Assembly (NCBI GenBank): GCA_964519245.1
Contig: CAZFLK010000002.1
Span: 45,077-109,076, forward strand
Direction of reading: 5' to 3'
DNA: 64,000 bases
Source of the DNA: an uncultured Verrucomicrobiota bacterium
Lineage (GTDB): Bacteria > Verrucomicrobiota > Verrucomicrobiia > Limisphaerales > JAYPEY01
The notes beneath the pieces are model-generated. The model was not told where the DNA came from. It saw nothing but the letters and a program-made list of their open reading frames with translations, and did no database searches. Of the stretch, positions 31,325-60,793 are shown piece after piece (positions within the stretch are counted from its first letter, which is position 1; the number at the start of each line of letters is the position of its first letter). Made by a program: the position numbers and the translations under genes.

Positions 31325-32800
<1,476 letters not shown>

Positions 32801-32818
32801 GGCGTCAGGCCGTTGGGT

Positions 32819-33424: not shown

Positions 33425-33432
33425 GATGTGTC

Positions 33433-36660: not shown

Positions 36661-37001
36661 GTCAAACCAACTAGGACGGCCCCGGGTGGGGCGGCATTCG
36701 GTATTCGATCAATCTTTGGCAAGATGACGGCTCAAAAGGAACCAGACAATGCTGGAATAAAGTGGGTTTGTCAGATCCCAGTTTGAATGGCATTTCCCCT
36801 ATTTTGTCAAAAGTGATGTCCAGATTAGTTTGCCCGGAGCGTCAAAGAATCGTATGACGTCGGTTTTGGATGGCTTGTGATTCCCGGGTTGTCCGGGATC
36901 GCGGCGTTTGATAAGGTGACGTATGATAGAGTTGAAGTCGTGGTTGCGGGGTTGGTTGGGACCTTGTTTGGCTGCGGCGCGAACAGCAAAAACCATTGAT
37001 T

Positions 37002-38459: not shown

Positions 38460-38524
38460 CGGAAGCTCTTCTTTCGGCGGCCGGGCGCGTTCGATTGCGT
38501 TCGGCCGCCTCTTTGTCTGCTGGT

Positions 38525-41500
38525 ATGAATCAAACAGGATTGCCCATGAAATTCACCGCCACTCCAGCGCTTATGTCCGCGGCGCTCGCTGCGTCTCTCC
38601 TCCTTCCAGCCGCTGCGCGCGCCGCCGCCGATCGCGAGCAACTTGAGTTTTTCGAGAAGAAGATCCGCCCGGTGTTGGCGGAGCACTGCTACCGCTGCCA
38701 CAGTGTTGCCGAAGGCAAGAGCCGCGGCGCGCTCACGCTCGACACGCGGGAAGGCACACTTAAGGGCGGCGACCTCGGGCCCGCCGTCGTGCCGGGCGAT
38801 CTCGACAAGAGCCTGCTGATCAAGGCCGTGCGCTGGGACGACGAGGACATGCAGATGCCTCCCAAGAACAAATTGTCCTCGTCCCAGATTGCCGACCTGG
38901 AAGCCTGGGTTCGCATGGGCGCGCCGGATCCGCGCGATGGCAAGCTGGTGGTGGCCGATCCCCGCGAGGTCGCGAAGAAGCACTGGGCCTTCCAACCCGT
39001 CAAGCGGCAGCCCGCGCCCGCGCCGGTCAACCCGGCCTGGGAACAAACGGAGATTGATCGCTTTATCAGCCAGGGGTTGAAGCAGGCCGGCATCGCGCCT
39101 TCGGAGAAAGCCGACAAGCGCACCTTGATGCGTCGCGCCTCCTATGATCTGACCGGACTGCCGCCCTCGCCGAGCGAGTTCGACTCCTTCATGTCCGACA
39201 CCTCGCCGAATGCCTGGGAGAAGGTCGTCGATCGCCTTCTCAAATCGCCGCACTACGGGGAGCGTTGGGGACGGCATTGGTTGGACGTGGCGCGTTACTC
39301 GGACACCAAGGGCGATGTCAATGGCCGGGTTGAAGACTTCCGGTATCCCTACGCCTGGACCTATCGCGATTATGTGATCCGCTCCTTCAACGAGGACAAG
39401 CCGTTCGATCAATTCATCCGCGAGCAGTTGGCGGCTGACATCATGCTTGAGCGAGGGCAGGTCCAGACGAACGACTTGGCAGCGTTGGGCTTCCTCACGG
39501 TCGGCAAGCGTTTCGGCGGCCAGCGCAATGAGATCATCGACGACCGCATTGATGTGGTCAGCAAAGGGTTCCTCGGTTTGACCGTGGTTTGCGCGCGCTG
39601 CCACGATCACAAGTTTGATCCCATTCCCACGGCTGACTACTACGCGTGGCATGGCGTCTTCAACAGCATTCGCGACAATTTCGAGGACACGGATCTGCCG
39701 CTGTTGGAGCCGGTCAAGGTCACGCCGGAATATCGCGAGTTTGTGTATCAATTGAATCAATTGCACAAGGAATACGGCGAGACGCGCTTCAAGGAGGAAG
39801 AGCGGCTTCGGAAAGAGGCCCGGGAGAAGGCGGGCGTCTACCTCTACGCCACCTGGGAGGTGGCGCAGCCGACCAATACCCTGAACCGCTTCATCTTCGT
39901 TGGACAGGAACGTCGGTTGCACAACGGTTTCTTCGATCGTTGGCGGCGTTTTCTGCAGACCCGCAAGGGAGACGATCCGGTCTGGGGTCCGTGGAAGGCC
40001 TACGCCGCGCTGAAGCCGGAGGATTGGAAGGCGGGCAAAGCCGGCGAATTGAGCGAGAAATATGCGGATACGGAGGCGGAGAAGCCGATCAACACCCTGA
40101 TTGCCCGCGCCCTGCGCACCAGTCCGCCCCGAAGCATGCGGGATGTGGGGGCGATCTACAGTCGGTTGCTGGCGGAAGTGAACACCCAGTGGCAGAACGC
40201 GTTGGCGCGCCAGGGCAGCAGAGGTCGCAAGCCGCGGCCATTGGAGGAAAGTCGCGAGCAGATTCGGGAGGCCTTGTATGGCGAGGATCGCCTGACCCCC
40301 TGCAATCCGGATACGAACGCCAGTTTTGGCCTGTTTTCGCAAGGATTTCAGGGGCGCCTGCAGCGCATCAAGGGACGCATGGTCGCGCTCAAGATGTCCC
40401 ATGAAGGCGCTCCCGGGCGGGCCATGATCGTCAAGGACAACGGCAATGGCCGGAATTCCCGCATCTTCATCCGTGGGGACGCGCGCAATCAGGGCGATGA
40501 AGTGCCGCGGCGCTTTTTGGAGGCCTTGTCGGACGACGAGCCGAAGCCCTTCAAGACTGGCAGCGGTCGTTGGGACCTGGCCAATGCCATTGCCTCACGC
40601 GACAATCCGCTGACTGCGCGGGTCATCGTGAACCGCATCTGGATGCATCATTTTGGCGAGGGGATTGTCCGGACGCCGAGCGATTTCGGCACGCGCTGTG
40701 AACCGCCGTCGCATCCGGAGATGCTGGATTGGTTGGCGACCTGGTTCATGGACAACGGCTGGTCGATCAAGAAGCTGCACAAGCTGATCATGATGTCCTC
40801 GGTCTACCAGTTGACCAGCGAGGAGGATCCGCGCAAGGGGCAGGTCGATCCCGCAAACAAACTGCTCTACCGCTACAATGTTCGCCGCCTCGGGTTTGAG
40901 GGCATGCGCGACACGCTGTTGGCCATCGGCGGCAAGATTGACCTCGAAATCGGGGGCAAGCCGGTCAATCTGATGGCCGACCCGTTCCCGACCCGCCGCA
41001 CGGTCTACGGGATGGTGGATCGTCGGAGCCTGCAGTCGATTTTCAACACCTTCGATTTCGCCAACCCGGACTTGAGCACGGCGCAGCGTTACCAGACGAC
41101 GGTGCCGCAGCAGGCGTTGTTCCTGATGAATAATCCCCTGGTGGTGGAGCAGGCCCGCAATCTGACGGCTCGCGGCGATTTTCGCGGGCGCGTGAATGAC
41201 GATGAGCGGATCCGTCTGCTCTACAAGCTGATCTACCAGCGTTATCCGAGCGCGCAGGAGCTATCGTTGGCCAAGCGGTATCTTTCGACCCAGGGCACGC
41301 TGGAAATGCAGGCCGCCTTTGAAGACCCGTGGAAGTATGGTGTGGGGCGCTATGACGCGCGGTCGCGCAAGGTTGTGGGTTTCCAGAAAATGCCCCTGTT
41401 CCATGAGGATCAGGAGGCGTGGCATGGAGGCACCCAATTGAAGTACGCCTACCTGAACGCGCAGGGCGGCCATGCCGGACTGCCCGGCATCGGGATCATC

Positions 41501-41932
41501 CGTCGCTGGACCGCACAGGCTGACGGCATCATTCAGGTCACCGGAACGTTGCGGCACACCGAGGAGATTGGCGACGGCGTGCGGGGCTACATGGTGTCGA
41601 GCCGCGCGGGCATCCTGGGCGCGCCGCAGAACGTCAAGAACAGCGCCAAGGCGATGAATGTCAATCGGTTGCCTGTCCGCAAGGGCGACACCCTGGATTT
41701 CATCGTCGATGGCTTCAAGGTTCCGGGCGCCGACCAGTTCAACTGGGCCCCGGTGGTGACCATGACGGTGGTCAACGACGAGAAGCAGCTTCCTCCCGGC
41801 AGTTCCACCACCTGGGCTTCGCAACAGATGTTCAGCGGGCCGCGCAAGACGGTTGAAGCGAGGCCTTTGGCGGCATGGGAGAAATTTGCGCAGGTGCTCC
41901 TGCTGACCAACGAACTCACGTTCTTCAACTGA
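38525..41932 (+). CDS. PSCyt1 (c-type heme) + DUF1549 + DUF1553 protein with extended C-terminal domain
   Basis: The track start 38495 is TTG. The ATG at 38525 gives MNQTGLPMKFTATPALMSAALAASLLLPAAARA. Heme motif EHCYRCHS. Blocks: LMRRASYDLTGLPPSPSEFDSFM, YGERWGRHWLDVARYSD and CARCHDHKFDPIPTADYY, with C-terminus LLLTNELTFFN. Confidence 0.9.
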   Translation: MNQTGLPMKFTATPALMSAALAASLLLPAAARAAADREQLEFFEKKIRPVLAEHCYRCHSVAEGKSRGALTLDTREGTLKGGDLGPAVVPGDLDKSLLIKAVRWDDEDMQMPPKNKLSSSQIADLEAWVRMGAPDPRDGKLVVADPREVAKKHWAFQPVKRQPAPAPVNPAWEQTEIDRFISQGLKQAGIAPSEKADKRTLMRRASYDLTGLPPSPSEFDSFMSDTSPNAWEKVVDRLLKSPHYGERWGRHWLDVARYSDTKGDVNGRVEDFRYPYAWTYRDYVIRSFNEDKPFDQFIREQLAADIMLERGQVQTNDLAALGFLTVGKRFGGQRNEIIDDRIDVVSKGFLGLTVVCARCHDHKFDPIPTADYYAWHGVFNSIRDNFEDTDLPLLEPVKVTPEYREFVYQLNQLHKEYGETRFKEEERLRKEAREKAGVYLYATWEVAQPTNTLNRFIFVGQERRLHNGFFDRWRRFLQTRKGDDPVWGPWKAYAALKPEDWKAGKAGELSEKYADTEAEKPINTLIARALRTSPPRSMRDVGAIYSRLLAEVNTQWQNALARQGSRGRKPRPLEESREQIREALYGEDRLTPCNPDTNASFGLFSQGFQGRLQRIKGRMVALKMSHEGAPGRAMIVKDNGNGRNSRIFIRGDARNQGDEVPRRFLEALSDDEPKPFKTGSGRWDLANAIASRDNPLTARVIVNRIWMHHFGEGIVRTPSDFGTRCEPPSHPEMLDWLATWFMDNGWSIKKLHKLIMMSSVYQLTSEEDPRKGQVDPANKLLYRYNVRRLGFEGMRDTLLAIGGKIDLEIGGKPVNLMADPFPTRRTVYGMVDRRSLQSIFNTFDFANPDLSTAQRYQTTVPQQALFLMNNPLVVEQARNLTARGDFRGRVNDDERIRLLYKLIYQRYPSAQELSLAKRYLSTQGTLEMQAAFEDPWKYGVGRYDARSRKVVGFQKMPLFHEDQEAWHGGTQLKYAYLNAQGGHAGLPGIGIIRRWTAQADGIIQVTGTLRHTEEIGDGVRGYMVSSRAGILGAPQNVKNSAKAMNVNRLPVRKGDTLDFIVDGFKVPGADQFNWAPVVTMTVVNDEKQLPPGSSTTWASQQMFSGPRKTVEARPLAAWEKFAQVLLLTNELTFFN

Positions 41933-45562: not shown

Positions 45563-45761
45563 GGTCCGGCCCCAGATAGAGAATCCCCTTTCCCCGAATG
45601 TCAAGTGGGCCCGGTTCGCGTCGAGCGGACAATGATGGGCGTAATTGGCTTTCAAGCCTGCTGGAAGACGGTCAGTCTGTCCCGTCGCCTTTCTGATGAA
45701 CGTCGCTGCAGCGAAGAACGATCATGGCGGGCCATCGGGTCCGCGACATGAGCGGAACTGG

Positions 45762-46823
45762 ATGTTCGTGCACCTCGCCAATATGTCGTGGTGGGCGCTC
45801 ATCTATCTGGGCAGCTATGCCGTGGCGGCGACTCTTGCGGGCGGCGCGGATCTGTTGCGCAACGCCGGGACGGCTGGTTTGGCGACGGGTATCGATTCCG
45901 TGCTGCAACTCTTCGCGGGCTGGTTGAAGTGGGCGCCGGCGGCGCTCGGGGCCTACGCCCTTCTTGGTTGGTTGCCTTCCCGGCGCGCGATCCTGTCGGG
46001 GGCGGGACTTCGCGCCTATCCCTGCTTTCTTGCTCTGGCGTTGCTGTTTCGGCGTTCGAGTTTCCGGCGTCTGCGGCCCGCGCGCGGGCTCTATTGGCGA
46101 CACGCGCGCATCCGGGATCGGTGGCTGCTGTTGCTCATCAAGATTCACTTCCTGCCGATCGCGGTCGGTTCGCTGGTGAACACCGCGGTCAATATGACGC
46201 GCGTTATTCAACGGATTACGGCCGAACCATCAATGCTGCTCGTGCTGGGGTTCATCATCGTCGCGGTGCGCGTCAGCGTGGATCTGGTGGACGCGGTGGT
46301 TTCCTCGATCGCCTATTCGGTGGAATCTCGACGTTCGGGAGGAGCGGTCCGGGCCGTCGACAACAATTGGCTGGGGTGGGTGAGTTGCCTTGTCTGTTAC
46401 CCGCCGGGTTGGCTGTTGACGTCGTCGCTGCTGGCCAAGCGGATCGAAGAGGAGGCGCAGATCTTCCCGATGGAATCGACGCTGGCCTGGGTTTGCGCGG
46501 TCCTGGGCGTGAGTTGCTATGCGGTCTACGGCTTCAGCGCCGTCAATCTGGGACTGCGATATTCGAATCTCTCTTACCGTGGGACGACGACCTGGGGGCT
46601 TTATCGCTGGGTGCGCCATCCGCAGTATGCCTCCAAGATCGGCGGATGGTTCTTTGAATGGCTGCCATTTTTTGCGGTGTTCTCGAATCTGCTGAGTTTT
46701 CTGGCCCTGGCGGGGATCTACCTGGTCCGAATCGCGACGGAGGAGCGGTTTCTCGGACGGTTCTCGGAGTATCGGGATTATTGCCGGCAGGTGAAGTGGC
46801 GCTGCATCCCGGGGATCTGGTGA
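45762..46823 (+). CDS. polytopic membrane protein with C-terminal ICMT/phospholipid-methyltransferase-like domain
   Basis: There are several N-terminal TM segments. The C-terminal block GLYRWVRHPQYASKIGGWFFEWL...RIATEERFLGRFSEYRDYCRQV matches the RHPxY...EE signature of the isoprenylcysteine carboxyl / PEMT-type methyltransferase family. The start is uncertain: the track start 45645 is TTG, and ATG 45762 was chosen. Confidence 0.6.
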   Translation: MFVHLANMSWWALIYLGSYAVAATLAGGADLLRNAGTAGLATGIDSVLQLFAGWLKWAPAALGAYALLGWLPSRRAILSGAGLRAYPCFLALALLFRRSSFRRLRPARGLYWRHARIRDRWLLLLIKIHFLPIAVGSLVNTAVNMTRVIQRITAEPSMLLVLGFIIVAVRVSVDLVDAVVSSIAYSVESRRSGGAVRAVDNNWLGWVSCLVCYPPGWLLTSSLLAKRIEEEAQIFPMESTLAWVCAVLGVSCYAVYGFSAVNLGLRYSNLSYRGTTTWGLYRWVRHPQYASKIGGWFFEWLPFFAVFSNLLSFLALAGIYLVRIATEERFLGRFSEYRDYCRQVKWRCIPGIW

Positions 46824-49563: not shown

Positions 49564-50457
49564 TCAGAGGCTCAAATGCCCCAGCGCCAGCAACGCGTAG
49601 AAGGTGTATTCGCAGTCCAGATCTTCCTCCAGCCAATTGCCGTAGAAGGAGCCGTCATTCGTCCAAAGCGTGTCCAGGTAATCGAGGCAGGCCTCTTTGA
49701 CCGGAGTGAGCGGCGCGTCTATGGCGGCCAGGGCGTGCAGTGAGGTCGCTGTTGAGAGGAGGTCGGGAATGGGGGCGGTTGGCATGGCCCGGAAACCGCC
49801 TTGTTCGTGGGCCTGCCGCAGGAGCCATTCGCCCGCTTCAGGGCGGTTCTCGGCGGCCAGTTGTTTCAGGGTGACGATGGCGGCGGCGGTGGCGTTGGTG
49901 GATCCGGCCGCCGTCCTGGCATTGACGTCATTTGTCCAGGCTCCATCCGAAGTCTCCAACGAATGCAACGAGCGGATCAGGCCATCCGGGTCTGGCGCCT
50001 CGAGGCGTAGATCCTGGTGCGCATGCAGCGCAAGGAAGGCGCCGTAGGCGGTGCCGGTTCCGGCGGCGCGGTCCGGATTGAAGCCGCCGTCGGGACATTG
50101 AAACTCCCGGATGCGTTCCGAGAGACGCTGACGGGCGCTCAAGGGGAACGCATTCGGGTCCGGCATGGCGGACCATCCGCGGGCCAAACAACCCAGATGC
50201 ACGAAGTCCAATCCCTCGCCGTCTCCGAAACCCCGCAGGTAGGCCGCCAACCGTTCGTAGTCCGGCTCCGCACGGAGGGCGACCAGGGAGTCGATGGCGA
50301 AGACCGTGTAGTAAAGGTCCGTCTCACCGTTTCGGTCGGCGAAACCGCCATCCCGGTTCTGACGGCTGCGAACGAACGACTCGACCAGGCCCGTGGATTC
50401 TCCAAGCAATTTGGGCGCGAGTCGCGCGACCTGCAGCATCTCGAGGCGAAGGCTCAT
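49564..50457 (-). CDS. prenyltransferase/squalene-oxidase-repeat (alpha-alpha toroid) protein, stand-alone
   Basis: 297 aa with five spaced repeats of the prenyltransferase-beta / terpene-cyclase type: RQNRDGGFAD, FQCPDGGFNP, LETSDGAWTN, AHEQGGFRAM, LWTNDGSFYG. It starts 31 nt downstream of the polyprenyl synthase fusion gene. Confidence 0.7.
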   Translation of the reverse strand: MSLRLEMLQVARLAPKLLGESTGLVESFVRSRQNRDGGFADRNGETDLYYTVFAIDSLVALRAEPDYERLAAYLRGFGDGEGLDFVHLGCLARGWSAMPDPNAFPLSARQRLSERIREFQCPDGGFNPDRAAGTGTAYGAFLALHAHQDLRLEAPDPDGLIRSLHSLETSDGAWTNDVNARTAAGSTNATAAAIVTLKQLAAENRPEAGEWLLRQAHEQGGFRAMPTAPIPDLLSTATSLHALAAIDAPLTPVKEACLDYLDTLWTNDGSFYGNWLEEDLDCEYTFYALLALGHLSL

Positions 50458-50488
50458 GGTGGGAGCGGGCCTTCGGGCGCGGCGTCCG

Positions 50489-52219
50489 TCATTGGCCTGT
50501 GGCCGCGTCGTCGCTCTTCATGTCGGCGACGGCGCGTTGTTCCTGGAACTCGCCGCACCAGCCGGTGATCTCCGCGTCGTTGAAGATCTTGCCGATCACG
50601 CGCCGCAGAAGGCCCTTGAGATTGGGGTTCTCGACGTCCGCCAAGGAGTGGATCGCAGCCTCTTTGTAGCTTTCCAGCAGCGCGCGGGATTTCTCGTCGG
50701 CCTTCAGTTCCCGGTAGAGGGATTCGATCGTCTCCCGGTTGGCGCCGTTGATTGGAGCGCGTTTCCAAAGTGATTCGATGATCGGTTTCGCATCGCCTCG
50801 AGCCCTTTCCTGTGACACGGCGAGGAGGATGCTGGGGCGCAAGCCTTCGATATCCGTGGCTTCTTCATCGGCCCCCAGGTCGTCCAAGTCGTCCCGAATC
50901 TGGTATGCGATGCCCAAGGCCTCGCTGTATTTGCCGAGCACATCCGAGTATTCGGCGTGGCGTCCGGCGTAGATGGCGCCGAGTCTGAGGGCGACCTCGA
51001 AAGCGGGGGCGGTCTTGAGTCGGAAAATCTCGAGCACTTCCTTCACCTTCATCGGCTGGGGATCGCGCGTCCAGCAGAGCTCGGCGCCTTGTCCGCGGCA
51101 TAATTGCCGCTGTCCGTTGGTCGCCGCCAGCAGCATCTCGGCGCGTTGTTCGGTCGGGACCTCCGAATTGCCGATCAGGCGGTAGCCCTCGCCAATCAGT
51201 AGGTCGCCCACATTCAGAGCCACGGGCACGCCGTGTTCTTCGTGCAGCGTCTTCTCTCCGTAGCGCTCCGCGTCCTCGTCCTCGATGTCGTCATGGATCA
51301 GAGAGGCCTTGTGGAAGCATTCGACCGCAATGGCGATTCTCTTGAGATCCTCGGGCAGTTCGCCGCCGACGCTCTCCCGTGTGGCCTCGAAAGCGGCCAC
51401 GGTCAGGAATGGCCGCCAACGCTTGCCGGCCCGGCAGAGCCACTCCTGGGCAATGGCTTCGGTTTCCCCCTCGGGTGCGCCCATGATTTCCGCGAGGCTG
51501 TCCGGAGTGAACCAGGAATCCACTTCGTTGCGCAGCGCGGTAAGGTCCAGGCGGCGGGTTTTATCGTCGCTGGTCAAGTGGATGTAGTCCCAAATCCAGT
51601 CCTCATCGACGGTGGTGTCGATGCAATCGTCCTGGAGCAGGGGGACGGCGACGCCGGGGACGGCGCCCGCCTCCATGTAGGGGAAGGCGCGCTCGAGCAC
51701 CGAGATGCAACTGACGCCCACGATGGCGTCCACCTTGCCGGTCTGGATCAGCGCCATGACGACGGCCGAGCCCTCCGCGGTGAGCACGGCGTAGCCGAGC
51801 TTCTCCGCCGCTTCCTGGAATTCCTGAATGGTGCAGAGGCCGCATTGCTTGCAGAGCAGGCCGAACTCATCGAACGGCGCCGGGCAACGGCTTTCCACCC
51901 GGAGGCATTTTGGAAGCAGCAGCAATCGCCGTTCGAAAGGGATCGTGGCCAGGGTTTCCCGCCACATCTCGTTGTTGACGAGGACGCCGATGTAGTCACG
52001 GTAGATGGGGTCGCAGCCCAATTGCTCGATGATCCGGTCCGCGTGGACTTTCAAGTCCTCGAGCGGTTGCGGCGGCACCGGGTTGTGCTCGGCGACGTAG
52101 TTCCGGATGAACTTCAAGAGGGCATTCCGCTCTTCCTTGGTCTGTGGAATGTTCTTCTTCGGCGGCCGGATGCGCTGCGTCGGAACAGGACGTGGAATGG
52201 TAATGGGCGCCGTGGACAT
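50489..52219 (-). CDS. fusion protein: N-terminal DUF116 (Cys-rich) domain + C-terminal trans-polyprenyl diphosphate synthase
   Basis: The DUF116-like block is RRLLLLPKCLRVESRCPAPFDEFGLLCKQCGLCTIQEF...GKVDAIVGVSCISVLERA...PLLQDDCIDTTVDED. The synthase part has GKRWRP, a first Asp-rich motif ASLIHDDIEDEDAERYG (DDxxD, about 51278-51292) and a second motif YQIRDDLDDLG. Confidence 0.8.
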   Translation of the reverse strand: MSTAPITIPRPVPTQRIRPPKKNIPQTKEERNALLKFIRNYVAEHNPVPPQPLEDLKVHADRIIEQLGCDPIYRDYIGVLVNNEMWRETLATIPFERRLLLLPKCLRVESRCPAPFDEFGLLCKQCGLCTIQEFQEAAEKLGYAVLTAEGSAVVMALIQTGKVDAIVGVSCISVLERAFPYMEAGAVPGVAVPLLQDDCIDTTVDEDWIWDYIHLTSDDKTRRLDLTALRNEVDSWFTPDSLAEIMGAPEGETEAIAQEWLCRAGKRWRPFLTVAAFEATRESVGGELPEDLKRIAIAVECFHKASLIHDDIEDEDAERYGEKTLHEEHGVPVALNVGDLLIGEGYRLIGNSEVPTEQRAEMLLAATNGQRQLCRGQGAELCWTRDPQPMKVKEVLEIFRLKTAPAFEVALRLGAIYAGRHAEYSDVLGKYSEALGIAYQIRDDLDDLGADEEATDIEGLRPSILLAVSQERARGDAKPIIESLWKRAPINGANRETIESLYRELKADEKSRALLESYKEAAIHSLADVENPNLKGLLRRVIGKIFNDAEITGWCGEFQEQRAVADMKSDDAATGQ

Positions 52220-52424: not shown

Positions 52425-52949
52425 TCACCAAGGATTGTGCAGTTTATGCCAATTTCTGGCAAGTTTCTCAATCTGCGCCAGTTCCTTCTGCAACTGACGC
52501 AGGTTCACTTGAATTCCTTCAAAGGAATACCTCAGTGTGTCGGGGTCCAGGTTGCGGTGGAACTGGTCCTCCTTGAAACCGTCCAATGTTCCCTGCGGCA
52601 TCAGGTTGACCCCAACGAAGTCGCGATGCTCGGCGGAGGAGGCCCAATCGACCAACCGGTCGTCATAGTGCGCGGCCAGTTTCCTGAACTCGCCCAACGT
52701 CAAATCGAGATTGCCGGTCAGTCCCAGCGCCGAACGAAGTTGGGTTCCGCGTTCGGCTGATTCCGGATTGTCGGGCCACAGCAGTTGGGACAGGTTCACG
52801 GCGCGCGAGAGAAAGCCGTCCACGTAGAACAGGGCCAACTCCGGCTCATTGGCGGTCACCTTGGCTGGAATGGCGCTCCAGGCGTGCCGCGCCTGGCGGC
52901 AGTTCAGCAGGATTTCCTCGAGCAGCTTGAAAATGAGGGGATTGTCCAT
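52425..52949 (-). CDS. hypothetical cytoplasmic protein (174 aa), no recognised family
   Basis: The internal ATG at 52949 gives MDNPLIFKLLEEILLNCRQARHAWSAIP... with no TM and no signal peptide. GC is visibly lower than in the neighbours. The N-terminal extension in the track ORF is encoded by the palindromic repeat and was rejected. Confidence 0.5.
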   Translation of the reverse strand: MDNPLIFKLLEEILLNCRQARHAWSAIPAKVTANEPELALFYVDGFLSRAVNLSQLLWPDNPESAERGTQLRSALGLTGNLDLTLGEFRKLAAHYDDRLVDWASSAEHRDFVGVNLMPQGTLDGFKEDQFHRNLDPDTLRYSFEGIQVNLRQLQKELAQIEKLARNWHKLHNPW

Positions 52950-53232: not shown

Positions 53233-54087
53233 TCACTTCTTCTGCGCGTCCAGGGCGGCCTGGGCCTTGGCGGCGGCTTCCTCAGCCTTCTTGGCGATCT
53301 CATCGGGTGAGGGCAGCGACATCAGCACCTCGGGGGGGATATCGCCCTCCTGGACCAGTTTGGTCAGGCACTTCTTGCGTTCGTTGAGCGCCTTGTCGGA
53401 GCTGCGCTCCTTGGAGAAGCGGGATTTCGCGCGTTCGCTGCGCTGGCGCAGCATGTCGTAGACATCGCCGCCCAGCAGCGAGGAGATGTCGACTTTCATC
53501 TTCTCGCGTTTCATGTCCGCGTCGCTGACCAGGTCGCCATTGATGGGGCCGGACTTGTACTTGGGGAACATGATCGCCGCCTCGGGGCACACACGGGAAC
53601 AGGCCGGACAGTTGGTCTTGCAATTGTCGTTGTTGCGGACCTCGATCTGTTGGTCGTCGTCGACGCCGTAGACATCAAACAGGCAGAAGCTCAGGCACTG
53701 CATACAGTTGGTGCAGCGGTCATAGTCGATGACGGGAAACCATGGCTTCCACTCGCCATGCTTCGAGGTCCGGGTTTCCTCGCGAAGGGCGTCGATGCGC
53801 TCGGCCAGATCCGCCGGCGCCTGGCCGTCGATGTTCTCGAATGTCACGCTGACCTCGCCAGAGGCGTCCTCGGCCTCGGGCGCCCGACCGTTGTCGAATC
53901 GGCCCAGGGCCACGATGGCGCTGCGGTCCGCCGGCGCCACGCGTCCGCCGGTTCCGGCGCGCGTCACGGTGTAGCCCTTGTCAAGCAACGCGGACAGGAT
54001 GTTGAAGCGCTCCTCGGCCGGGAGTTCCGTCGCGCCCTCGCCCTCGTAGAGAACGACGCGCAATGTGTTTTCTTCAAGCAGACTCAT
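53233..54087 (-). CDS. 2x[4Fe-4S] ferredoxin-domain protein with N-terminal unknown domain and Lys/Glu/Ala-rich tail
   Basis: The internal ATG at 54087 gives [18 protein letters not shown].... The cluster motifs are [11 protein letters not shown] (CxxCxxCxxxC) and [13 protein letters not shown] (CxxxCxxCxxxCP). The C-terminus is charged and helical (...[20 protein letters not shown]). Confidence 0.8.
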
Positions 54088-54583: not shown

Positions 54584-55726
54584 TCAAGCCGCCGGATCGG
54601 CGATGCGATGCGTGGGTTCCGGCTTGCCGGGGCGGAAGTGTTCGGTGTGCTCGATCCGGGCCGTCAGCCCGGGAAAGCGCTCCTGCAGGGCGGCGAGTCC
54701 CTGAGTGACCGCCTCACTCAGCGTATCCGGCTCCGCCTCGGCGCGCATGTTGATGATCAGTTGGCCCGATTTCACGGTGTCGTCCAGTTCCTGGGAAAGT
54801 TCGGCGACGTAGTCGTTGCGGACGAGGTTGACCACGGCGATGTCGCCGAGGCCGCCGTCCGGACTGAAGGTCATTTTCAAGTGGGCGATTTCGGCGTCTT
54901 GTCCGGCCAGGCGCGACTGCATGCTCTTGCAGAGGGCGCGCAACGCCTTGTTGGCGTCGAATTCGGTTTTCGAGGAAAGTTGCACGGTGCAGTTGAGCCA
55001 GCCCAGCAGGGCTTCGCCCTCCGCGTAGACCTCGTAGTCGACGTCCATGGCGACCCGGGCCTCCTGTTCCGCGTCCCACAGATGCGCGAACCAGTTGTTG
55101 AGCCCCTTCTCCTCGCGGGCGGACACCTCGAATATTCGGGCGTTGGGATAGTGCTCGTTGAGGCAGTTTCCCAGCATGGCGATGTCGCATTCCTCGAGAA
55201 TGTCGCACTTGTTGATGACGATGACATCCGCCTCCTCGAGTTGCTTCTTGTAGATGTATCGGACTTTCTCGGAGAAGCGGCCTCCTTCGTTCAGGCCGAA
55301 TACGCGGGCCGCGCGGACGGGATCCACCACCACGCTCAGCGGCGCAATCTTGAAATCCTCGCCATACATCCGACGCAGGGGGTAGGTCACGGTCGCGACC
55401 AGGTCCGTGCAACTGCCGACGGGCTCGGCGATGAACACATCCGGTCGGGTCGCGTCATTCAATTTGGCGGCGGCGTCGACCAGCGAGTTGAACCGACAGC
55501 AGAAACAGCCGCCGGAAATCTCCTCGGTCGGGAATCCGCGGGAGCGCAGCATGGCGGTGTCGACCAGTTCATTGCCCTGATCGTTGGTGATCAGACCGAC
55601 CTTCAAACCCTGGTCGCTCAACAGCTGAGCCATCTTGGCGATTGAGGTCGTTTTTCCCGCGCCCAGGAAGCCGCCAATCATGATGTAGCGGGCCTTGGTG
55701 GCGTGTTGGTCGTCTGTTTCGATCAT
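54584..55726 (-). CDS. G3E-family P-loop GTPase, COG0523/CobW-like metallochaperone type
   Basis: Walker A is IMIGGFLGAGKTT. A CxCC metal motif lies in ISGGCFCCRF. Walker B-like is FIAEPVGSCTD and NKxD is VIVINKCD. The C-terminal domain is divergent. Confidence 0.85.
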   Translation of the reverse strand: MIETDDQHATKARYIMIGGFLGAGKTTSIAKMAQLLSDQGLKVGLITNDQGNELVDTAMLRSRGFPTEEISGGCFCCRFNSLVDAAAKLNDATRPDVFIAEPVGSCTDLVATVTYPLRRMYGEDFKIAPLSVVVDPVRAARVFGLNEGGRFSEKVRYIYKKQLEEADVIVINKCDILEECDIAMLGNCLNEHYPNARIFEVSAREEKGLNNWFAHLWDAEQEARVAMDVDYEVYAEGEALLGWLNCTVQLSSKTEFDANKALRALCKSMQSRLAGQDAEIAHLKMTFSPDGGLGDIAVVNLVRNDYVAELSQELDDTVKSGQLIINMRAEAEPDTLSEAVTQGLAALQERFPGLTARIEHTEHFRPGKPEPTHRIADPAA

Positions 55727-55830: not shown

Positions 55831-56313
55831 TCAATCAATCTCATCCGCGCGCTGGTTCTCCAGAATCTTGTCGATGGTCTTGTCCAAGACGGCGGCATAG
55901 GCGTCGACATTCATGCGCTTGTCATCCGGTTCTCCGGTCGCCTCATACAGCCAGCCGGTGTTGTAGGGGTCCTTGTCGATCGCGTTGAGCTTCTTCTCCA
56001 GCGCTGGATTGGTTCCCGTGAACGAGCCGTCGATGACACAGTAGATGTCCGAGATGGCCTTGAATCCCTCGATCCAGCCAATGATCTGGCCGGTTTTGAC
56101 CGCGGCTTTCGGTTGTTCCTCAAAGCCGAAATCGACGAGTTCGCCCAGCATGCGGGTGGCAAACTTGGTCAAACCGACGCGCCAGAGGCCGGTGTCATCC
56201 CGACGCTCGAGCCAGCAGTGTGACGGCGTGTAGAGGAAGTCCGTCGGCAGCCGCGTCACGAAATGCGAGCGGCGGTAGTGCAGGGTTTCGCGATTGGTTG
56301 GTTTGTCGGCCAT
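55831..56313 (-). CDS. glycine-cleavage H-protein-like (lipoyl-carrier fold) protein
   Basis: YTPSHCWLERRDDTGLWRVGLTKFATRMLGELVDFGF...GQIIGWIEGFKAISDIYCVIDG has the GcvH layout with the lipoyl-Lys position conserved (EGFKAISD against the canonical ESVKAASD). The ATG at 56313 was chosen; the track start 56361 is a TTG overlapping fabD. Confidence 0.75.
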   Translation of the reverse strand: MADKPTNRETLHYRRSHFVTRLPTDFLYTPSHCWLERRDDTGLWRVGLTKFATRMLGELVDFGFEEQPKAAVKTGQIIGWIEGFKAISDIYCVIDGSFTGTNPALEKKLNAIDKDPYNTGWLYEATGEPDDKRMNVDAYAAVLDKTIDKILENQRADEID

Positions 56314-56326: not shown

Positions 56327-57259
56327 TCATTCGCCCTTGAGCGCGGCGACCGTTTTTTCAAGGCTGGCGCAGTCGGCGACGTTGTGGATCTCGGTCTTGC
56401 GGTCGATGCGGCGCATGAAGCCGGTCAGCGCATTGCCGGGGCCCAGTTCGATGAAGCGGGTGAAGCCCAGGTTCATCAGTTGTCGGATCGATTCCTCCCA
56501 GCGCACGGACGAGGTGACCTGGTCCACGAGCAGCGGCGCAATCTGTGCGGGCGAACCGTGGGCTTCGGCTGTGACATTGGAGATGACCGGGACGGCGGGC
56601 GGGTTGATGGCGATGGCGTCCAGTTCCGCTTTCAACTTGGGTTGGGCGCCCGCCATCAGCGGCGAGTGGTAGGCCCCTGCGACGGTCAATGGCAGCGCGC
56701 GTTTGGCGCCCTTCTCCTTGGCGGCCTCGCAGGCGGATTCGATCTTGTCCGCAGCGCCGGAGATGACGATCTGGCCCGGGCAATTCAGGTTGGCGAGGGT
56801 GACGCCGGAGGCCTCGCAGACATCACGGGTTTGCGTTTCGTCGAGTCCGATGATCGCTGCCATACCGCCCTGGGTTTCGTCGCAGGCTTCCTGCATGAAG
56901 CGTCCGCGTTGCCGCACGACCCGAAGACCATCCTCGAAGCTCATGGCGCCGGCCGCGGCGAGAGCGGTGAATTCTCCGAGGGACAGTCCCGCCGTTGCGC
57001 CGAATTCCAGCTCCGGAGCCTGTTCCTTCAGGAGTTGCAACGCAATCCAACTCACCAGGTAGATTCCGGGTTGGGCGTTCTCGGTCTTGGTCAAGGCTTC
57101 CTCCGGGCCGTCGAAGCAGATCGACGCGAGGTCGTAGCCCAAGGCCTCGTTGGCTTGGTCGAACAGGCTCTTCGCCGTCGGATGATTCTCGGCCAGATCG
57201 CGCCCCATCCCCACGGATTGGGCGCCCTGACCGGCAAATAAAAGTGCAATCTTACTCAT
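56327..57259 (-). CDS. fabD: malonyl-CoA:ACP transacylase
   Basis: The internal ATG gives MSKIALLFAGQGAQSVGMGRDL. The active-site GLSLGEF is present (ATAGLSLGEFTALAAAG), as are AYHSPLM and VRWEESI. Confidence 0.93.
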   Translation of the reverse strand: MSKIALLFAGQGAQSVGMGRDLAENHPTAKSLFDQANEALGYDLASICFDGPEEALTKTENAQPGIYLVSWIALQLLKEQAPELEFGATAGLSLGEFTALAAAGAMSFEDGLRVVRQRGRFMQEACDETQGGMAAIIGLDETQTRDVCEASGVTLANLNCPGQIVISGAADKIESACEAAKEKGAKRALPLTVAGAYHSPLMAGAQPKLKAELDAIAINPPAVPVISNVTAEAHGSPAQIAPLLVDQVTSSVRWEESIRQLMNLGFTRFIELGPGNALTGFMRRIDRKTEIHNVADCASLEKTVAALKGE

Positions 57260-57433
57260 GGGAATCGGAGGACTAAACAGGAACGCCGGTCCATCGGGCA
57301 AGAATGGAATGGCGGCTGGCGGAGCGGAGGGGACGGTTTCCAGACGGTGTGCAGGGATTCTCCCGCTCCGTCGAGGTTTGGGATTGCCCGTGTTGTCAGG
57401 GGCTCTCGGCGCCGACGCTGACCGCGTTGGCGC

Positions 57434-58750
57434 CTACAGGGCCTTGGTCTTGCCGGGCACGGCGATGGGATACCAGCCGTCTTCGTCGGGCAGCACGGGA
57501 GGAGTGGAATTCATGGTGAGTTCCCGGCCGTAGGGAACGAGCTCGAGCTTGGAGTTCAGGGCGTCGTCGAACTCGATCTTCTTGCCGGAGTAGGTGGCCA
57601 TTCGGCCCAGAATGGCGGTCATCGTGCTGAGCGCGCCGTATTCCGCCTCCATGTGGTGGTTGTTCTCACGGATTGCCTTGAACAGGGGATAGTGTTCGAG
57701 TTGGTGCCCCTGTTCGCTTTTCTTGAGGCGCTTGGTCCAGGCATTGGGGCCGGTGATCTGGAAAAGCTTCCTTTGTTGGACCAGGTCCGCCGACCCTTTT
57801 GTGCCCATGGCGTGTTCGCTGACGCTGGTCCAGCAGCCTCGAATCTGGCGGCATTGACTGTAACAGCGGGCTCCATCCGCGAATTCGTATTCCACCTGGT
57901 GGTGGTCGTAGATCTGGCCGTTGATCCGCTTGTTGCGAACCTGCCGGCCTCCCATTCCCTGCGCGCGGACGGGGTAGCCGCCCTTGATCCAGTTCATCAC
58001 GTCGATGTTGTGGATGTGCTGTTCGACAATGTGGTCGCCGGACAGCCAGGTGAAATAGTACCAGTTGCGGATCTGGTAGCGCATCTCCTCCTCGTTGGGC
58101 AGGCGCTCCTTGCCGGCGCGGGCGTTGCCGTCCCAGTAGACCCGCAGGGAGACGACGTCGCCGATCGCGCCGTCGTGCAGGCGTTGGACGGCCTCCTGGT
58201 AAGTGGGTTGATGGCGTCGCTGCATGCCAACGCCGACTTTGAGGCCCTTCTGTTTGGCGATTTTGGCGGCGGCCAGGATTTTCCGCACTCCGGGAGCGTC
58301 GGTGGCCACGGGCTTTTCCATGAACACGTGCTTGCCTTGTTTGACCGCCTCTTCGAAATGAATGGGGCGAAAGCCCGGCGAGGTGGCGAGGATGCAGACG
58401 TCCGCCTCGGCGATCGCCTTCTTGTAATCCTCGAATCCGGTGAACTGGCGGTCCGGCGGCACGTCCACCTTGTCGTGATGCTGGGCGCGGATGGAGCTGA
58501 GGGACTTGGCGAGTTGGTTCTCGTCGACGTCGCACATGGCGACGAGTCGCGTGGGCCCCGGCGTGTTCATGGCCTGGACGCAGGCGCCGGTGCCGCGGCC
58601 GCCGCAGCCAATCATGGCGATCTTGATGGTGTCGTCCGGGGCGGCGTGGGCAAATCGTTCGGCGGAAAGCGTCGCGAGGGCGGCGGTTGGCAGCGCGGAT
58701 CTGGGTCCCGGCTTGGCGGCGGGGGCAATGGGGCGGTTCATGATCTTCAT
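57434..58750 (-). CDS. Gfo/Idh/MocA family oxidoreductase with N-terminal export (Tat-like) signal
   Basis: The ATG at 58750 gives MKIMNRPIAPAAKPGPRSALPTAALATLSAERFAHA. The Rossmann block is IKIAMIGCGGRGTG, and EKP is present in HVFMEKPVATD. The rest of the 1083-aa track ORF (58751-60685) is antisense to the cytochrome gene. Confidence 0.88.
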   Translation of the reverse strand: MKIMNRPIAPAAKPGPRSALPTAALATLSAERFAHAAPDDTIKIAMIGCGGRGTGACVQAMNTPGPTRLVAMCDVDENQLAKSLSSIRAQHHDKVDVPPDRQFTGFEDYKKAIAEADVCILATSPGFRPIHFEEAVKQGKHVFMEKPVATDAPGVRKILAAAKIAKQKGLKVGVGMQRRHQPTYQEAVQRLHDGAIGDVVSLRVYWDGNARAGKERLPNEEEMRYQIRNWYYFTWLSGDHIVEQHIHNIDVMNWIKGGYPVRAQGMGGRQVRNKRINGQIYDHHQVEYEFADGARCYSQCRQIRGCWTSVSEHAMGTKGSADLVQQRKLFQITGPNAWTKRLKKSEQGHQLEHYPLFKAIRENNHHMEAEYGALSTMTAILGRMATYSGKKIEFDDALNSKLELVPYGRELTMNSTPPVLPDEDGWYPIAVPGKTKAL

Positions 58751-58885
58751 GACAATGCCGCACGGTGAATTGATCAAGGAAGATTGCGGTATTTTCCGGG
58801 CTTGCCCCAGGTCGTTTCGGGTGGATCTTTCCGCGGGATTGCGCATTATTGCCGCCCGGTTGCGAAGAGTCGCTTCGAAGTGCCA

Positions 58886-60793
58886 ATGATCGACGTTTTG
58901 AATCAGTCTCAATTCAGGGTGGGCGCGCCACCGCTCGGACGGCGGGTTGGAGACCGCATGGGTGGCGCCTTGCGCGATGGTTTCGGACGCTTGTGCGTCG
59001 TCATTTTGTTGGCGGGGTGCGCTTGGAGCGGCGCGTCGTCCGGCGCCGGGGCGCCGGCGGAGAGCGCTGCGGCCGCGGAGCACCGGAAGCTTTTTGAACA
59101 GGAGCGTTATCCTTCGGCGACGGCCTGCAAGACCTGCCATCCGGGGCATTATCGGGAATGGTCTGTTTCCCAGCATGCCTACGCCCAGCTGAGTCCGATC
59201 TTCAACTCGATGCACGCGAAGATCGTGAAGTTGACCAACGGCTCGAACGGCGATTTCTGCGTCCGGTGCCACACGCAGGTGGGAATGAACATGGATGAGC
59301 CGGTGTTCATGAGCAACATGGACCGGCATCCGGTCTCGAGGGAAGGCATCACCTGCGTGGTCTGCCATCGTTTGGAGAATGAGTATGGCAAGGTCAGCGG
59401 ACGTTTTGCGTTGGTCGAGGGCGGCTTGAACACGCCGGTTTTCGGTCCCTCCGGAAACGCGGAGTTGAATCGCGTTCTGGCGGACCCGGGAAACTATCAA
59501 CTCACCACGGATCCGGCGGAACAGGGGCGCGTGGTGCATCCGGAGGTCAGGCAGGCGGGGCAGTTGACGACGTCCGGATTCTGCGGCGCCTGCCACGATG
59601 TGACCTTGAAGAATGGCTTTCGATTGGAGGAGGCCTTCAGCGAATTCAAGAATTCGCCGGCGGCCAAGCGGGGGGAGTCCTGCCAGGATTGCCACATGGG
59701 CAAGGTTCCGGGAAAGAAATCCGGCTATCGGCTGGAGCCGGCGGCCATCGTGGGCGGCGTTCCGACCGAGCCGCGCAAACGCACGAATCACATGTTTCCC
59801 GGGCCCGATTACCCAGTGATTCATGCCGGCATCTTTCCGCACAACCCCAAGGCCGCCGAATTGGCGACGATGCGCGAGTGGTTGACGTTCGACGACCAGG
59901 CGGGTTGGGGAACCGACGAGTATGAGCGGCGCGCGGACAAACAGAAGAAGTATCCCTCCCGGTGGCGGACGGTGGACGATCGTTATGACGCCCGGGCCGT
60001 GATCGATGAACAGGAGAAGTTGCTGGCGGAAATGCAGGAGCAACGGCTCGCCCTGCTGCGCGAGGGGTATCGGCTGGGTGAGTTGAAGGTGACCCGGGCC
60101 TCCCGGCGCGGATTGCGCTTCGACATTGAAGTCCGCAATGGCACGGACGGTCACAACGTGCCGACCGGCTTCGACGCCGAGCGCCTGACCTGGCTGCGGG
60201 TCACGGTGACCGATCCGGCCGGCGAGGTGGTTTTCCAATCCGGCGATCTGGATCCGAACGGCGATGTGCGCGATCTGCATTCGCATTACGTCCACGACGG
60301 CAAACTGCCCCTGGACCGGCAGTTGTTCAGCCTTCAGAGCAAGTTTCTGACGCGCAATTTCCGGGGCGGTGAGCGTGAGCAGGTGTTGCCCGTCAACTAC
60401 TCGCTTGACCCGCTGCCTTTCGTTCGTCCCGAGCCGTTCTCCGTCGTCCTCACCGGGCGTCCCTCCGATGCGCGGAAACACAAGCGGGGAATCGGCCCGC
60501 TCGAGAGCCGCATCGCGTCCTACAAGGTGAGCCGTTCGGCCCTGAAGGGCGAGGGCGACTACCGGATCAACGTCAAGCTTATGGCGGCCATGGTTCCGGT
60601 CAACCTGGTGCTGGAAATCGCCGACATGGGATTCGACTACCACATGACCGCCGAGGACGTGATCCAGGCTCTCGTGGCCGGCCACATGACGCTCTGGGAC
60701 AAGACGGTCACCGTTGCCCTCGACGGCGAGAAGCCCGCCTTCGATCTCGCCGGCACGCCGGAACCTGCCCGCAAGGATGGCAAGGGCAATTGA
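58886..60793 (+). CDS. pentaheme c-type cytochrome (probable lipoprotein) with a non-heme C-terminal domain of about 330 aa
   Basis: It has five CxxCH motifs: CKTCH, CVRCH, CVVCH, CGACH, CQDCH. The first sits in a cytochrome-c554-like context (CKTCHPGHYREWSVSQHA). A lipobox-like LLAGCAW is present. The start is ATG 58886 or, more likely for a lipoprotein, ATG 58958 (MGGALRDGFGRLCVVILLAGC). Confidence 0.85.
   Translation: MIDVLNQSQFRVGAPPLGRRVGDRMGGALRDGFGRLCVVILLAGCAWSGASSGAGAPAESAAAAEHRKLFEQERYPSATACKTCHPGHYREWSVSQHAYAQLSPIFNSMHAKIVKLTNGSNGDFCVRCHTQVGMNMDEPVFMSNMDRHPVSREGITCVVCHRLENEYGKVSGRFALVEGGLNTPVFGPSGNAELNRVLADPGNYQLTTDPAEQGRVVHPEVRQAGQLTTSGFCGACHDVTLKNGFRLEEAFSEFKNSPAAKRGESCQDCHMGKVPGKKSGYRLEPAAIVGGVPTEPRKRTNHMFPGPDYPVIHAGIFPHNPKAAELATMREWLTFDDQAGWGTDEYERRADKQKKYPSRWRTVDDRYDARAVIDEQEKLLAEMQEQRLALLREGYRLGELKVTRASRRGLRFDIEVRNGTDGHNVPTGFDAERLTWLRVTVTDPAGEVVFQSGDLDPNGDVRDLHSHYVHDGKLPLDRQLFSLQSKFLTRNFRGGEREQVLPVNYSLDPLPFVRPEPFSVVLTGRPSDARKHKRGIGPLESRIASYKVSRSALKGEGDYRINVKLMAAMVPVNLVLEIADMGFDYHMTAEDVIQALVAGHMTLWDKTVTVALDGEKPAFDLAGTPEPARKDGKGN

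Follow-up and report, generated by a model that had tools for sequence, protein, structure and literature searches.

What would be made by a gene pair that sets a DUF116-polyprenyl diphosphate synthase fusion beside a small protein built of toroid repeats, and does the second protein transfer or cyclise what the first one produces? The question is raised by a 64,000-nucleotide (nt) stretch of contig CAZFLK010000002.1 from an uncultured Verrucomicrobiota bacterium (GenBank assembly GCA_964519245.1, positions 45,077 to 109,076 of the forward strand), analysed here as a whole and hereafter called the window, for which an initial annotation had proposed just such a two-gene module. We find the pair to be real, conserved and uncharacterised, with a synthase half that points to a product longer than C20 and a toroid protein that has lost both of the catalytic signatures known from its structural relatives. 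The interpretation that we favour, tentatively and with somewhat less than even confidence, is that the pair forms the precursor-forming core of a non-squalene terpenoid pathway, in which DUF116 would provide a metal-containing link and the toroid protein would serve as a carrier.

The gene pair in the window

Both open reading frames (ORFs) lie where the initial annotation had placed them and are on the minus strand, with the toroid gene downstream of the fusion gene across a gap of 31 nt, and the domains assigned to them were correct:

50489..52219, minus strand: DUF116-polyprenyl diphosphate synthase fusion gene, 576 amino acids (aa), supported by the ORF, Pfam PF01976 and PF00348, and AlphaFold2, the synthase half matching 1WY0, 5JFQ and 6KD7
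51584..52027, minus strand: DUF116 domain, aa 65-212 (Pfam PF01976, 117.8 bits, cutoff 25)
50753..51457, minus strand: trans-isoprenyl diphosphate synthase domain, aa 255-489 (Pfam PF00348 polyprenyl_synt, 138.9 bits, cutoff 27)
51278-51292, minus strand: first Asp-rich motif, DDIED, verified in the sequence
50879-50893, minus strand: second Asp-rich motif, DDLDD, verified in the sequence
49564..50457, minus strand: toroid partner gene, 297 aa, supported by the ORF, Pfam PF00432, AlphaFold2, Foldseek, hhalign and synteny

The toroid protein matches PF00432 (Prenyltrans) at 62.3 bits against a cutoff of 26.5, with sub-threshold matches to SQHop_cyclase_N and SQHop_cyclase_C, and the Pfam hidden Markov model (HMM) search supported DUF116, polyprenyl_synt and the toroid alike above gathering scores. 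Five GG[FW]-type repeat motifs are visible, in agreement with the five repeats described earlier. The fusion is a DUF116 domain joined to an intact trans-isoprenyl diphosphate synthase domain; neither it nor the toroid protein reaches an NCBIfam equivalog cutoff, the best score for the fusion being 128.9 bits against a cutoff of 450. Pfam scans of the other sizeable ORFs in the window found no SQS_PSY domain, squalene-hopene cyclase (SHC), PPTA alpha subunit or hopanoid genes, and together with tblastn searches using proteins of related loci they bear out the earlier statement that other isoprenoid genes are absent nearby. A scan for promoters and terminators at the locus gave results at chance level only.

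Conservation of the pair

Neighbour tables were built with tblastn and all-against-all BLASTP for the best 80 genome loci of the fusion and two more from look-ups (82 altogether), and the synteny counts below use as denominators the loci with enough sequence, which number 69 for the toroid gene, 50 for upstream genes, 65 for the radical S-adenosylmethionine (SAM) gene and 45 for the cyclase. These loci span Verrucomicrobiota, Planctomycetota (including the complete genome CP197413) and Vicinamibacterales of the Acidobacteriota, and the nearest homologues are named as Verrucomicrobiota/Limisphaerales. Each of the two proteins has more than 120 close homologues, and both domains are present in every one of the more than 120 relatives that share 71-100% identity with the fusion. 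When representatives at 50% identity were scanned exhaustively, 519 fusion clusters appeared at E<=1e-30, and full-length proteins with both domains extended to approximately 34% identity. Among genomes representing one per Genome Taxonomy Database (GTDB) species there were at least 589 confirmed relatives.

In 49 of 69 genome loci the toroid gene comes immediately downstream of the fusion and is read from the same strand, and it is a conserved neighbour across Verrucomicrobiota, Planctomycetota and Vicinamibacterales. With the pair present in these 49 other species-level genomes and so many homologues of each protein, chance is no explanation. For 22 of these 49 loci the tblastn coordinates overlap the fusion end by 4-61 nt; such stop/start overlaps suggest translational coupling, and the fusion and toroid genes probably constitute a conserved, translationally coupled module. 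Of the 50 informative metagenome loci sought from the toroid side, 33 carry the fusion immediately upstream, and in the other 17 the toroid gene is solitary, with no recurrent neighbour. In a 91%-identical locus (L085), the order is a 174-aa ORF, the fusion and the toroid gene, followed by the same symporter and transglutaminase-like genes; the redox genes described below are not adjacent there, and the fusion-toroid pair persists. Thus, the two genes are the constant core in the lineage of the window, and to that extent the idea of a two-gene module was sound. The module is not self-contained, however, as the pair mostly sits inside a cluster of seven to nine genes, and the pair is no orphan.

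Product length of the synthase half

By both sequence and fold, the synthase half is closest to the archaeal-type C20 synthases 1WY0, 5JFQ and 6KD7. The AlphaFold2 model of the fusion shows the all-alpha synthase fold and matches 1WY0, 4JYX and 5JFQ with template modelling (TM) scores of about 0.8 normalised to the target, and Foldseek with the whole fusion returned synthase matches only. Both Asp-rich motifs are complete, with Asp positions that are invariant in 74 fusions from different species, and the A-S-L-I-H stretch noted earlier is present before the first motif:

51293..51319, minus strand: chain-length-determining stretch C-F-H-K-A-S-L-I-H, with Ala305 at position -5, Ser306 at -4 and Phe302 at -8

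Each of these three residues is conserved in 74 of the 74 fusions, so that the aromatic residue at -5 or -4 that marks the short-chain signature of types I and II is missing. In a residue-level alignment the C20 relatives and Escherichia coli IspA carry Tyr or Phe at -5 (H-N-Y-S-L-V-H-DD, H-N-F-T-L-V-H-DD and H-A-Y-S-L-I-H-DD), whereas the fusion carries Ala (H-K-A-S-L-I-H-DD). Loss of the aromatic side chain at -5 reportedly lets the chain exceed C20, according to work by Ohnuma and colleagues and by Tarshis et al., and residues one turn deeper are said to set the next limit, as judged from mutagenesis that includes that of the Thermotoga octaprenyl enzyme by Guo et al. The invariant Ala at the position where C20 relatives have Tyr or Phe suggests that the product is an all-trans, head-to-tail polyprenyl diphosphate longer than C20, which fits the earlier proposal of a C20 or longer product; the small residues at -5 and -4 would fit a long-chain synthase, the invariant Phe at -8 may limit the length, and a product of about C25-C35 is the most plausible. 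Scores against curated models name no specific class: the fusion falls far below every cutoff of the NCBIfam farnesyl diphosphate (FPP) and geranylgeranyl diphosphate (GGPP) synthase models, and scores 55-72 bits against octaprenyl, solanesyl and decaprenyl models with cutoffs of 383-456. Two standalone relatives of the synthase half (P0369 and P0383) had gene contexts that were short or uninformative.

The toroid protein and its degenerate motifs

In the AlphaFold2 model of the toroid protein (predicted local distance difference test, pLDDT, 95.3; predicted TM score, pTM, 0.92), 13 helices are arranged as one N-terminal helix and a 12-helix barrel, and on this model the protein is a complete (alpha/alpha)6 barrel like that of prenyltransferase beta subunits and cyclase beta domains. 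Foldseek matched it to the beta subunits of RabGGTase and GGTase-III with a TM score of 0.73 (6O60_B, 4EHM_B) and to monodomain class II cyclases at 0.63-0.66 (8PAK, 8PAJ and MstE, 6SBB), as well as to 7XQ4. Identity to both kinds of relatives is only 13-19%, and Foldseek does not separate them.

Comparison of the catalytic positions was more informative, with the proviso that HMM alignments fall in several registers because the barrel is internally repeated. The Asp, Cys and His zinc ligands of RabGGTase beta correspond to D232, L234 and Y284 of the toroid protein in the sequential register, and the ligands fall on D281, E283 and Y50 in the register of the FTase-beta alignment, so that the triad is without its Cys and His in either plausible register. 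No Cys is conserved in 46 family members or in 34 diverse members, C282 of the window protein being variable, and the toroid protein therefore lacks the zinc site of protein prenyltransferases. At the cyclase position, P-D-L-L-S-T-A (aa 231-237) aligns on P-D-A-D-D-T-A of an SHC-like cyclase in a profile-profile comparison (hhalign, probability 88.6%, E=2.7e-6). Within this stretch D232, L233, L234 and T236 are invariant in the 34 diverse members and S235 is kept in at least 90% of them; the general-acid motif, DxDD or DxD, is absent from the toroid protein, its aligned position reading D-L-L-S with only the first Asp retained. Judged by these residues, the toroid protein has lost both known catalytic signatures and belongs functionally to neither enzyme family, and its sequence lends no support to the suggestion of transfer or cyclisation of the product; a canonical transferase or cyclase is unlikely. 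Its strong conservation argues for some specific role: R42, Y49, Y50, R93, Y138, D232, D281, E283 and Y284 are invariant, and the N-terminal helix is nearly so.

Could that role be catalysis of a new type, with the toroid protein acting on the fusion product as a monodomain cyclase or as a prenyl-transferring or hydrolysing enzyme whose active residues are neither DxDD nor a zinc-thiolate site? We consider this reading, which comes near to the initial annotation, unlikely, although it is the best of the alternatives. The fold match to monodomain cyclases is about equal to that to prenyltransferase beta subunits, MstE sets a precedent by departing from DxDD and using DxD in its place (PMC12414744), the invariant residues include many Asp, Glu, Arg, Tyr and His side chains, the N-terminal helix is nearly invariant, and in 12 loci, the window included, the toroid gene is the sole cyclase-like gene next to the synthase. 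Against these points, only the first Asp is kept at the shared catalytic position while Leu or Glu replaces the zinc Cys, and no member of the family has a known activity. In addition, the true DxDD cyclase found in related loci (see below) is always accompanied by the toroid, which therefore apparently does not replace it.

Conserved cysteines of the DUF116 half

The AlphaFold2 model of the fusion, built from a 30-sequence alignment (pLDDT 86.9, pTM 0.83), places three N-terminal helices before a four-stranded beta-alpha-beta core with a Cys-rich loop, followed by the synthase. The modelled DUF116 core appears Rossmann/flavodoxin-like, in agreement with the flavodoxin-like fold predicted with HHpred by Makarova et al. 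2015 (PMC5898192). Seven Cys residues of this half are conserved in 100% of the 74 fusions (C105, C112, C123-x2-C126-x2-C129, C171 and C199), and an eighth lies beyond the synthase domain:

50555..50557, minus strand: codon of Cys555 in the tail motif G-W-C-x-E-F (aa 553-558), past the synthase domain, present in 73 of 74 fusions

The tail is modelled at pLDDT below 50, and Cys555 occurs in only about 13 of 30 more distant representatives; the C-terminal tail may fold back onto DUF116, with Cys555 as a metal ligand. With eight conserved Cys residues, one of them lying past the synthase, the two halves would seem to form one structural unit around putative metal centres and not a mere concatenation. 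The DUF116 profile had no match at E<=10 among solved structures, and NCBIfam held nothing meaningful and no curated family for it. Elsewhere, a standalone DUF116 gene adjoins ispH, a squalene-hopene cyclase gene, hpnH and a polyprenyl synthetase gene in a Bipolaricaulota cluster (bioRxiv 10.1101/2025.11.21.689855), a context that lends independent, if circumstantial, support to a link of the domain with isoprenoid metabolism. For DUF116, a 25-year-old domain without a function, the fusion provides a concrete biochemical setting, tethered to a prenyl synthase and bearing eight conserved Cys residues.

A more specific possibility, compatible with the favoured pathway, is that DUF116 is an iron-sulfur reductase fed by ferredoxin that acts reductively on the substrate or product of the synthase, for example by removing the diphosphate to leave a polyprene hydrocarbon or by saturating a double bond, so that the SHC-like cyclase would receive a substrate free of phosphate. 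SHC-type cyclases normally use hydrocarbons or alcohols, not long diphosphates, and the eight conserved Cys with their CxxCxxC motif, the Rossmann/flavodoxin-like core (in the model, and in the HHpred prediction of PMC5898192), the ferredoxin and 4-Cys proteins as the most constant neighbours, and the proximity to IspH, itself an iron-sulfur reductase of isoprenoid synthesis, in another phylum are all in its favour. We nonetheless rate it as quite unlikely: DUF116 has no homology to a known reductase, neither the structure search nor the curated families having supplied one (0 Protein Data Bank matches at E<=10), the standalone DUF116 of methanogens is linked to genes for sulfite reductase or an ArsA-type ATPase and not to isoprenoid genes (PMC5898192), and bacterial class II cyclases of di- and sesquiterpenes accept diphosphates, so that a reductive step is unneeded.

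The larger cluster and its reduced version in the window

In related loci the usual cluster comprises genes for a GcvH-like protein, a CobW-like protein, a 4-Cys protein, a ferredoxin, a radical SAM/SPASM enzyme, the fusion, the toroid protein, a DxDD-bearing SHC-like cyclase and a cysteine desulfurase. The radical SAM/SPASM enzyme (approximately 400-430 aa) is encoded just before the fusion in 35 of 65 loci and is nearest to the NirJ/AhbC/PqqE type, although it reaches no equivalog cutoff. Next after the toroid gene, 33 of the 45 informative loci encode a two-domain SHC-like cyclase of about 600 aa, whose gene was never seen where the toroid gene is missing; this cyclase carries an invariant GGVPDADDT and scores 111 bits against the hopene cyclase cutoff of 431. 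A cysteine desulfurase of the IscS/NifS/DndA type was found in 22 loci. No squalene synthase gene was seen in the window or among the recurrent neighbours of related loci. Some ORFs of 714-1025 aa looked like toroid-cyclase fusions; a comparison of coordinate frames revealed them to be out-of-frame over-extensions of ORFs, and they were discarded.

Searches with tblastn for the SHC-like cyclase, the radical SAM enzyme and the cysteine desulfurase gave no match in the 64-kb window, which is thus a reduced version of the cluster, with these three genes elsewhere in the genome or absent. The genes upstream of the fusion in the window are the following:

52425..52949, minus strand: 174-aa ORF with no Pfam or NCBIfam match, in the slot of the radical SAM gene; shared with only the closest relatives, L001 and L085, and present in none of the 82 other loci
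53233..54087, minus strand: ferredoxin-like protein, 284 aa (Pfam Fer4 families), carrying eight Cys in a 2x[4Fe-4S] motif and extended at the C-terminus by a conserved segment
54137..54565, minus strand: 4-Cys protein, 142 aa, with four invariant Cys (C10, C12, C44 and C68)
54584..55726, minus strand: CobW/COG0523-like GTPase, 380 aa, a putative metallochaperone (Pfam cobW, 89.7 bits)
55831..56313, minus strand: GcvH-like protein (Pfam GCV_H), with the lipoyl-lysine motif E-G-F-K-A kept and K101 invariant

The 174-aa ORF may be a lineage-specific replacement or insertion. Genes for the ferredoxin-like and 4-Cys proteins are the most frequent upstream neighbours of the fusion, each in 40 of 50 loci, followed by those for the CobW-like protein in 30 and the GcvH-like protein in 29, all four being on the strand of the fusion. 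The 4-Cys protein has no Pfam or PDB relative; its family (C-x-C...C...C) has at least 7,998 matches, the 120 listed being without a Pfam domain and named only as "hypothetical protein", and a further homology search returned only close Verrucomicrobial relatives. In the cultured species Chthoniobacter flavus Ellin428 (L166, SLWZ01000039.1, 8075-11259 and 14085-15377), the desulfurase, GcvH-like, 4-Cys and ferredoxin genes stand together in a separate block; a radical SAM gene lies 4 kb from it, and the surroundings hold no synthase fusion. There are accordingly two separable and often adjacent modules, one for redox and sulfur functions and one for terpenoids, and the copy in the window serves as a pointer to the system and is not the best place to study it.

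A proposed pathway and the remaining alternatives

Within the favoured reading of a non-squalene terpenoid pathway, the fusion would make a head-to-tail polyprenyl diphosphate longer than C20. DUF116 and the tail Cys would hold an iron-sulfur or other metal centre linking the synthase to an electron-transfer chain, a role suggested by the eight conserved Cys together with the frequent ferredoxin and 4-Cys neighbours, and the ferredoxin and 4-Cys proteins would be its electron-transfer partners. The toroid protein would be a stoichiometric, catalytically degenerate partner that associates physically with the synthase, takes up the hydrophobic prenyl chain and relays it, to the adjacent DxDD SHC-like cyclase where the cluster is complete. 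Tailoring of the product or maturation of the metal centres may fall to the radical SAM enzyme and the sulfur-mobilising genes.

Three features make the carrier role attractive. The toroid gene overlaps the synthase gene at stop and start, the cyclase gene is never found without the toroid gene, and the stem lineage of the SHC-like clade shows excess substitutions on the dimerisation surface of SHC (PMC12414744), an alteration that would fit a new protein partner. We have identified a large family of prenyltransferase-beta-like barrels that is without both known catalytic motifs and is still strongly conserved. Product release by long-chain trans-synthases reportedly depends, according to Ohnuma, Koyama and Ogura, on a carrier protein or detergent, and a catalytically degenerate barrel is a candidate answer to that need.

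Several observations weigh against this pathway. The toroid protein could hide an active site of its own among its many invariant polar and aromatic residues, the metal centre of DUF116 is deduced from the Cys pattern, and the chain-length prediction derives from one helix. Pairing is not obligatory, as approximately one third of fusions and one third of toroid genes are solitary. The redox and sulfur block of Chthoniobacter flavus stands by itself, and its link to the synthase could be indirect. Finally, with neither the cyclase nor the radical SAM gene in the window, the end-product here may differ or may not exist.

In its boldest form, which we regard as a long shot, the non-squalene pathway would, where the full set of genes is present, make never-isolated cyclic "regular" head-to-tail polyprenoid lipids of the tricyclohexaprenol type. 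DUF116 would then act on the prenyl chain as an iron-sulfur catalytic domain of a novel sort, and the toroid protein would be a novel type of polyprenyl carrier subunit that is not itself catalytic. Compounds of the tricyclohexaprenol type were reportedly postulated by Ourisson and co-workers as the source of the tricyclic terpane (cheilanthane) biomarkers of sediments and oils.

It is improbable that the fusion is instead a housekeeping prenyl diphosphate synthase, for example for the side chain of menaquinone, with DUF116 as a regulatory or structural metal module and neighbours that are unrelated to it. About a third of the fusions do stand alone in unrelated contexts, the family is as widespread as the 519 clusters and at least 589 species-representative matches indicate, and the redox block can stand by itself. 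The gene order is, however, kept across three phyla with overlapping stop and start of the fusion and toroid genes, the pair persists in L085 while all else changes, a dedicated DxDD cyclase gene comes immediately after the pair, and no quinone biosynthesis gene is among the recurrent neighbours.

Bacterial protein prenylation, in which the toroid protein would be a beta-type transferase acting on Cys residues of a neighbour such as the 4-Cys protein, with processing by a methyltransferase like isoprenylcysteine carboxyl methyltransferase (ICMT), is suggested by the best sequence and fold matches (Rab geranylgeranyltransferase and GGTase-III beta), by the CobW-type putative zinc chaperone in the cluster and by a weak ICMT-like match 3 kb away (45645-46823), but we rejected it as exceedingly improbable for want of both zinc ligands and an alpha subunit: there is no conserved Cys, the zinc Cys is replaced by Leu or Glu and the His by Tyr in the two registers, there is no PPTA-repeat alpha subunit in the window or among the recurrent neighbours of 82 loci, an ICMT match of 23.8 bits against the Pfam cutoff of 24 that is present in none of the 82 loci, and no C-terminal CaaX-like motif in the neighbouring proteins inspected.

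Other features of the window and related loci

The ICMT-like match lies at the C-terminus of a 392-aa membrane protein encoded on the plus strand (45645-46823). Next to the GcvH-like gene, an ORF for a FabD-like acyltransferase (56327-57301, minus strand; PF00698, 130 bits) shares 35 nt with the GcvH-like ORF when the latter is read at its longest, both being on one strand. As conserved partners of the pair, the FabD-like, SSF-symporter, transglutaminase-like and ICMT-like genes were all rejected, the SSF symporter recurring in four Verrucomicrobial loci and the others in none. In a 74%-identical relative (L004), a 35-aa ORF (8553-8660, plus strand) lies between the ferredoxin and radical SAM/SPASM genes; SPASM enzymes often modify small peptides.

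Farther away, the region 22554-41932 holds tandem DUF1501 and DUF1549/DUF1553 (PSCyt2/PSD1) genes that are typical of Planctomycetota-Verrucomicrobiota-Chlamydiota (PVC) genomes, namely three DUF1501 genes (24619-25908, 31325-32800 and 36996-38459) and four DUF1549/DUF1553 genes (22554-24500, 25916-28870, 33433-36660 and 38495-41932), two of which have a planctomycete cytochrome c domain. A 1083-aa protein (57434-60685, minus strand) has a GFO/IDH/MocA oxidoreductase domain in its C-terminal third only, its approximately 680 N-terminal residues being without a domain, and nearby a 335-aa protein (62196-63203, plus strand) carries a cytochrome c554-like domain.

Comparison with known systems

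Literature on DUF116, COG1852, PF01976 and combinations of the cluster components yielded a single sentence about the fusion and no account of the cluster. That sentence mentions a DUF116-polyprenyl synthetase fusion, Psta_0175 of Pirellula staleyi (Makarova et al. 2015, PMC5898192), so that the earlier claim of no characterised system with this architecture stands as regards characterisation, while the fusion itself had already been mentioned. Standalone DUF116 proteins (arCOG02078/COG1852, e.g. MMP0162) resemble that half of the fusion in being Cys-rich, with CxxCxxC and a predicted flavodoxin-like fold. The archaeal ones differ in having two N-terminal transmembrane helices, in place of the soluble N-terminal helices of the fusion, and in adjoining sulfite reductase or ArsA-like genes, and the fusion has the extra conserved Cys after its synthase domain.

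Archaeal-type (type I) GGPP synthases and other trans-isoprenyl diphosphate synthases of short or medium chain length (e.g. 1WY0, 5JFQ and 6KD7) share with the fusion the fold, both Asp-rich motifs and a first motif without the two-residue insertion. The fusion departs from them in its invariant Ala at -5 in place of Tyr or Phe, in the N-terminal DUF116 domain of about 250 aa and the Cys-bearing C-terminal tail, and in falling below every NCBIfam equivalog cutoff.

For the toroid protein, the beta subunits of protein prenyltransferases (FTase, GGTase-I, RabGGTase and GGTase-III) share the (alpha/alpha)6 barrel and GGF-type repeats and give the best Pfam, sequence and fold matches (RabGGTase beta at E=1.4e-11 with the family profile), whereas the toroid protein has no zinc triad, no alpha subunit and only 13-17% identity, and is about 30-100 residues shorter. 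Monodomain class II cyclases (MstE, 6SBB; 8PAK/8PAJ) are likewise single toroid domains of similar size, from which it differs by D-L-L-S in place of DxDD or DxD; at 297 aa it is also below the smallest known class II cyclase, of 350 aa (PMC12414744). With its length filters, 300-400 aa for MstE-type sequences and at least 350 aa for those derived from Pfam, that study would have missed the toroid family, whose members are approximately 295 aa long.

The cyclase that comes immediately after the toroid gene in 34 related loci, and is not found in the window, would belong to the SHC-like clade. This clade spans PVC, the Fibrobacterota-Chlorobiota-Bacteroidota (FCB) group, Spirochaetota and Acidobacteriota, and the cluster cyclases, at about 600 aa, match it in taxa, length range and invariant DxDD, an assignment made by these features and not by a tree. 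As late as 2025 no function had been assigned to the clade, which was placed as the sister group of cyclases that use head-to-tail epoxy-polyprenyl substrates, with the substrate of the clade named a priority (PMC12414744), and the available text of Santana-Molina et al. 2020 (PMC7306690) suggests a non-squalene precursor from the genomic context of planctomycetal SHC-like cyclases. The two phylogenetic studies make its substrate and product a key gap for cyclase evolution and for the assignment of lipid biomarkers. Neither main text, as available (PMC7306690, PMC12414744), describes the DUF116-synthase fusion, the toroid partner or the redox genes as companions of these cyclases. From the present loci the clade gains a dedicated precursor synthase with a predicted product longer than C20, an obligate toroid companion and a redox module.

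The closest precedent for such a pathway is the sporulene pathway of Bacillus (the heptaprenyl diphosphate synthase HepS/HepT, YtpB and SqhC), in which, according to the available text of PMC7306690, a cyclic terpenoid is made from a head-to-tail polyprenyl diphosphate and not from squalene, by a dedicated long-chain synthase and an SHC homologue. The available portions of the literature texts describe neither the toroid partner nor the pattern of eight Cys, and likewise neither the redox module nor the Ala signature at -5. The Bacillus pathway belongs to another phylum, uses a heterodimeric synthase and has no DUF116, no toroid partner and no genes for iron-sulfur or radical SAM proteins.

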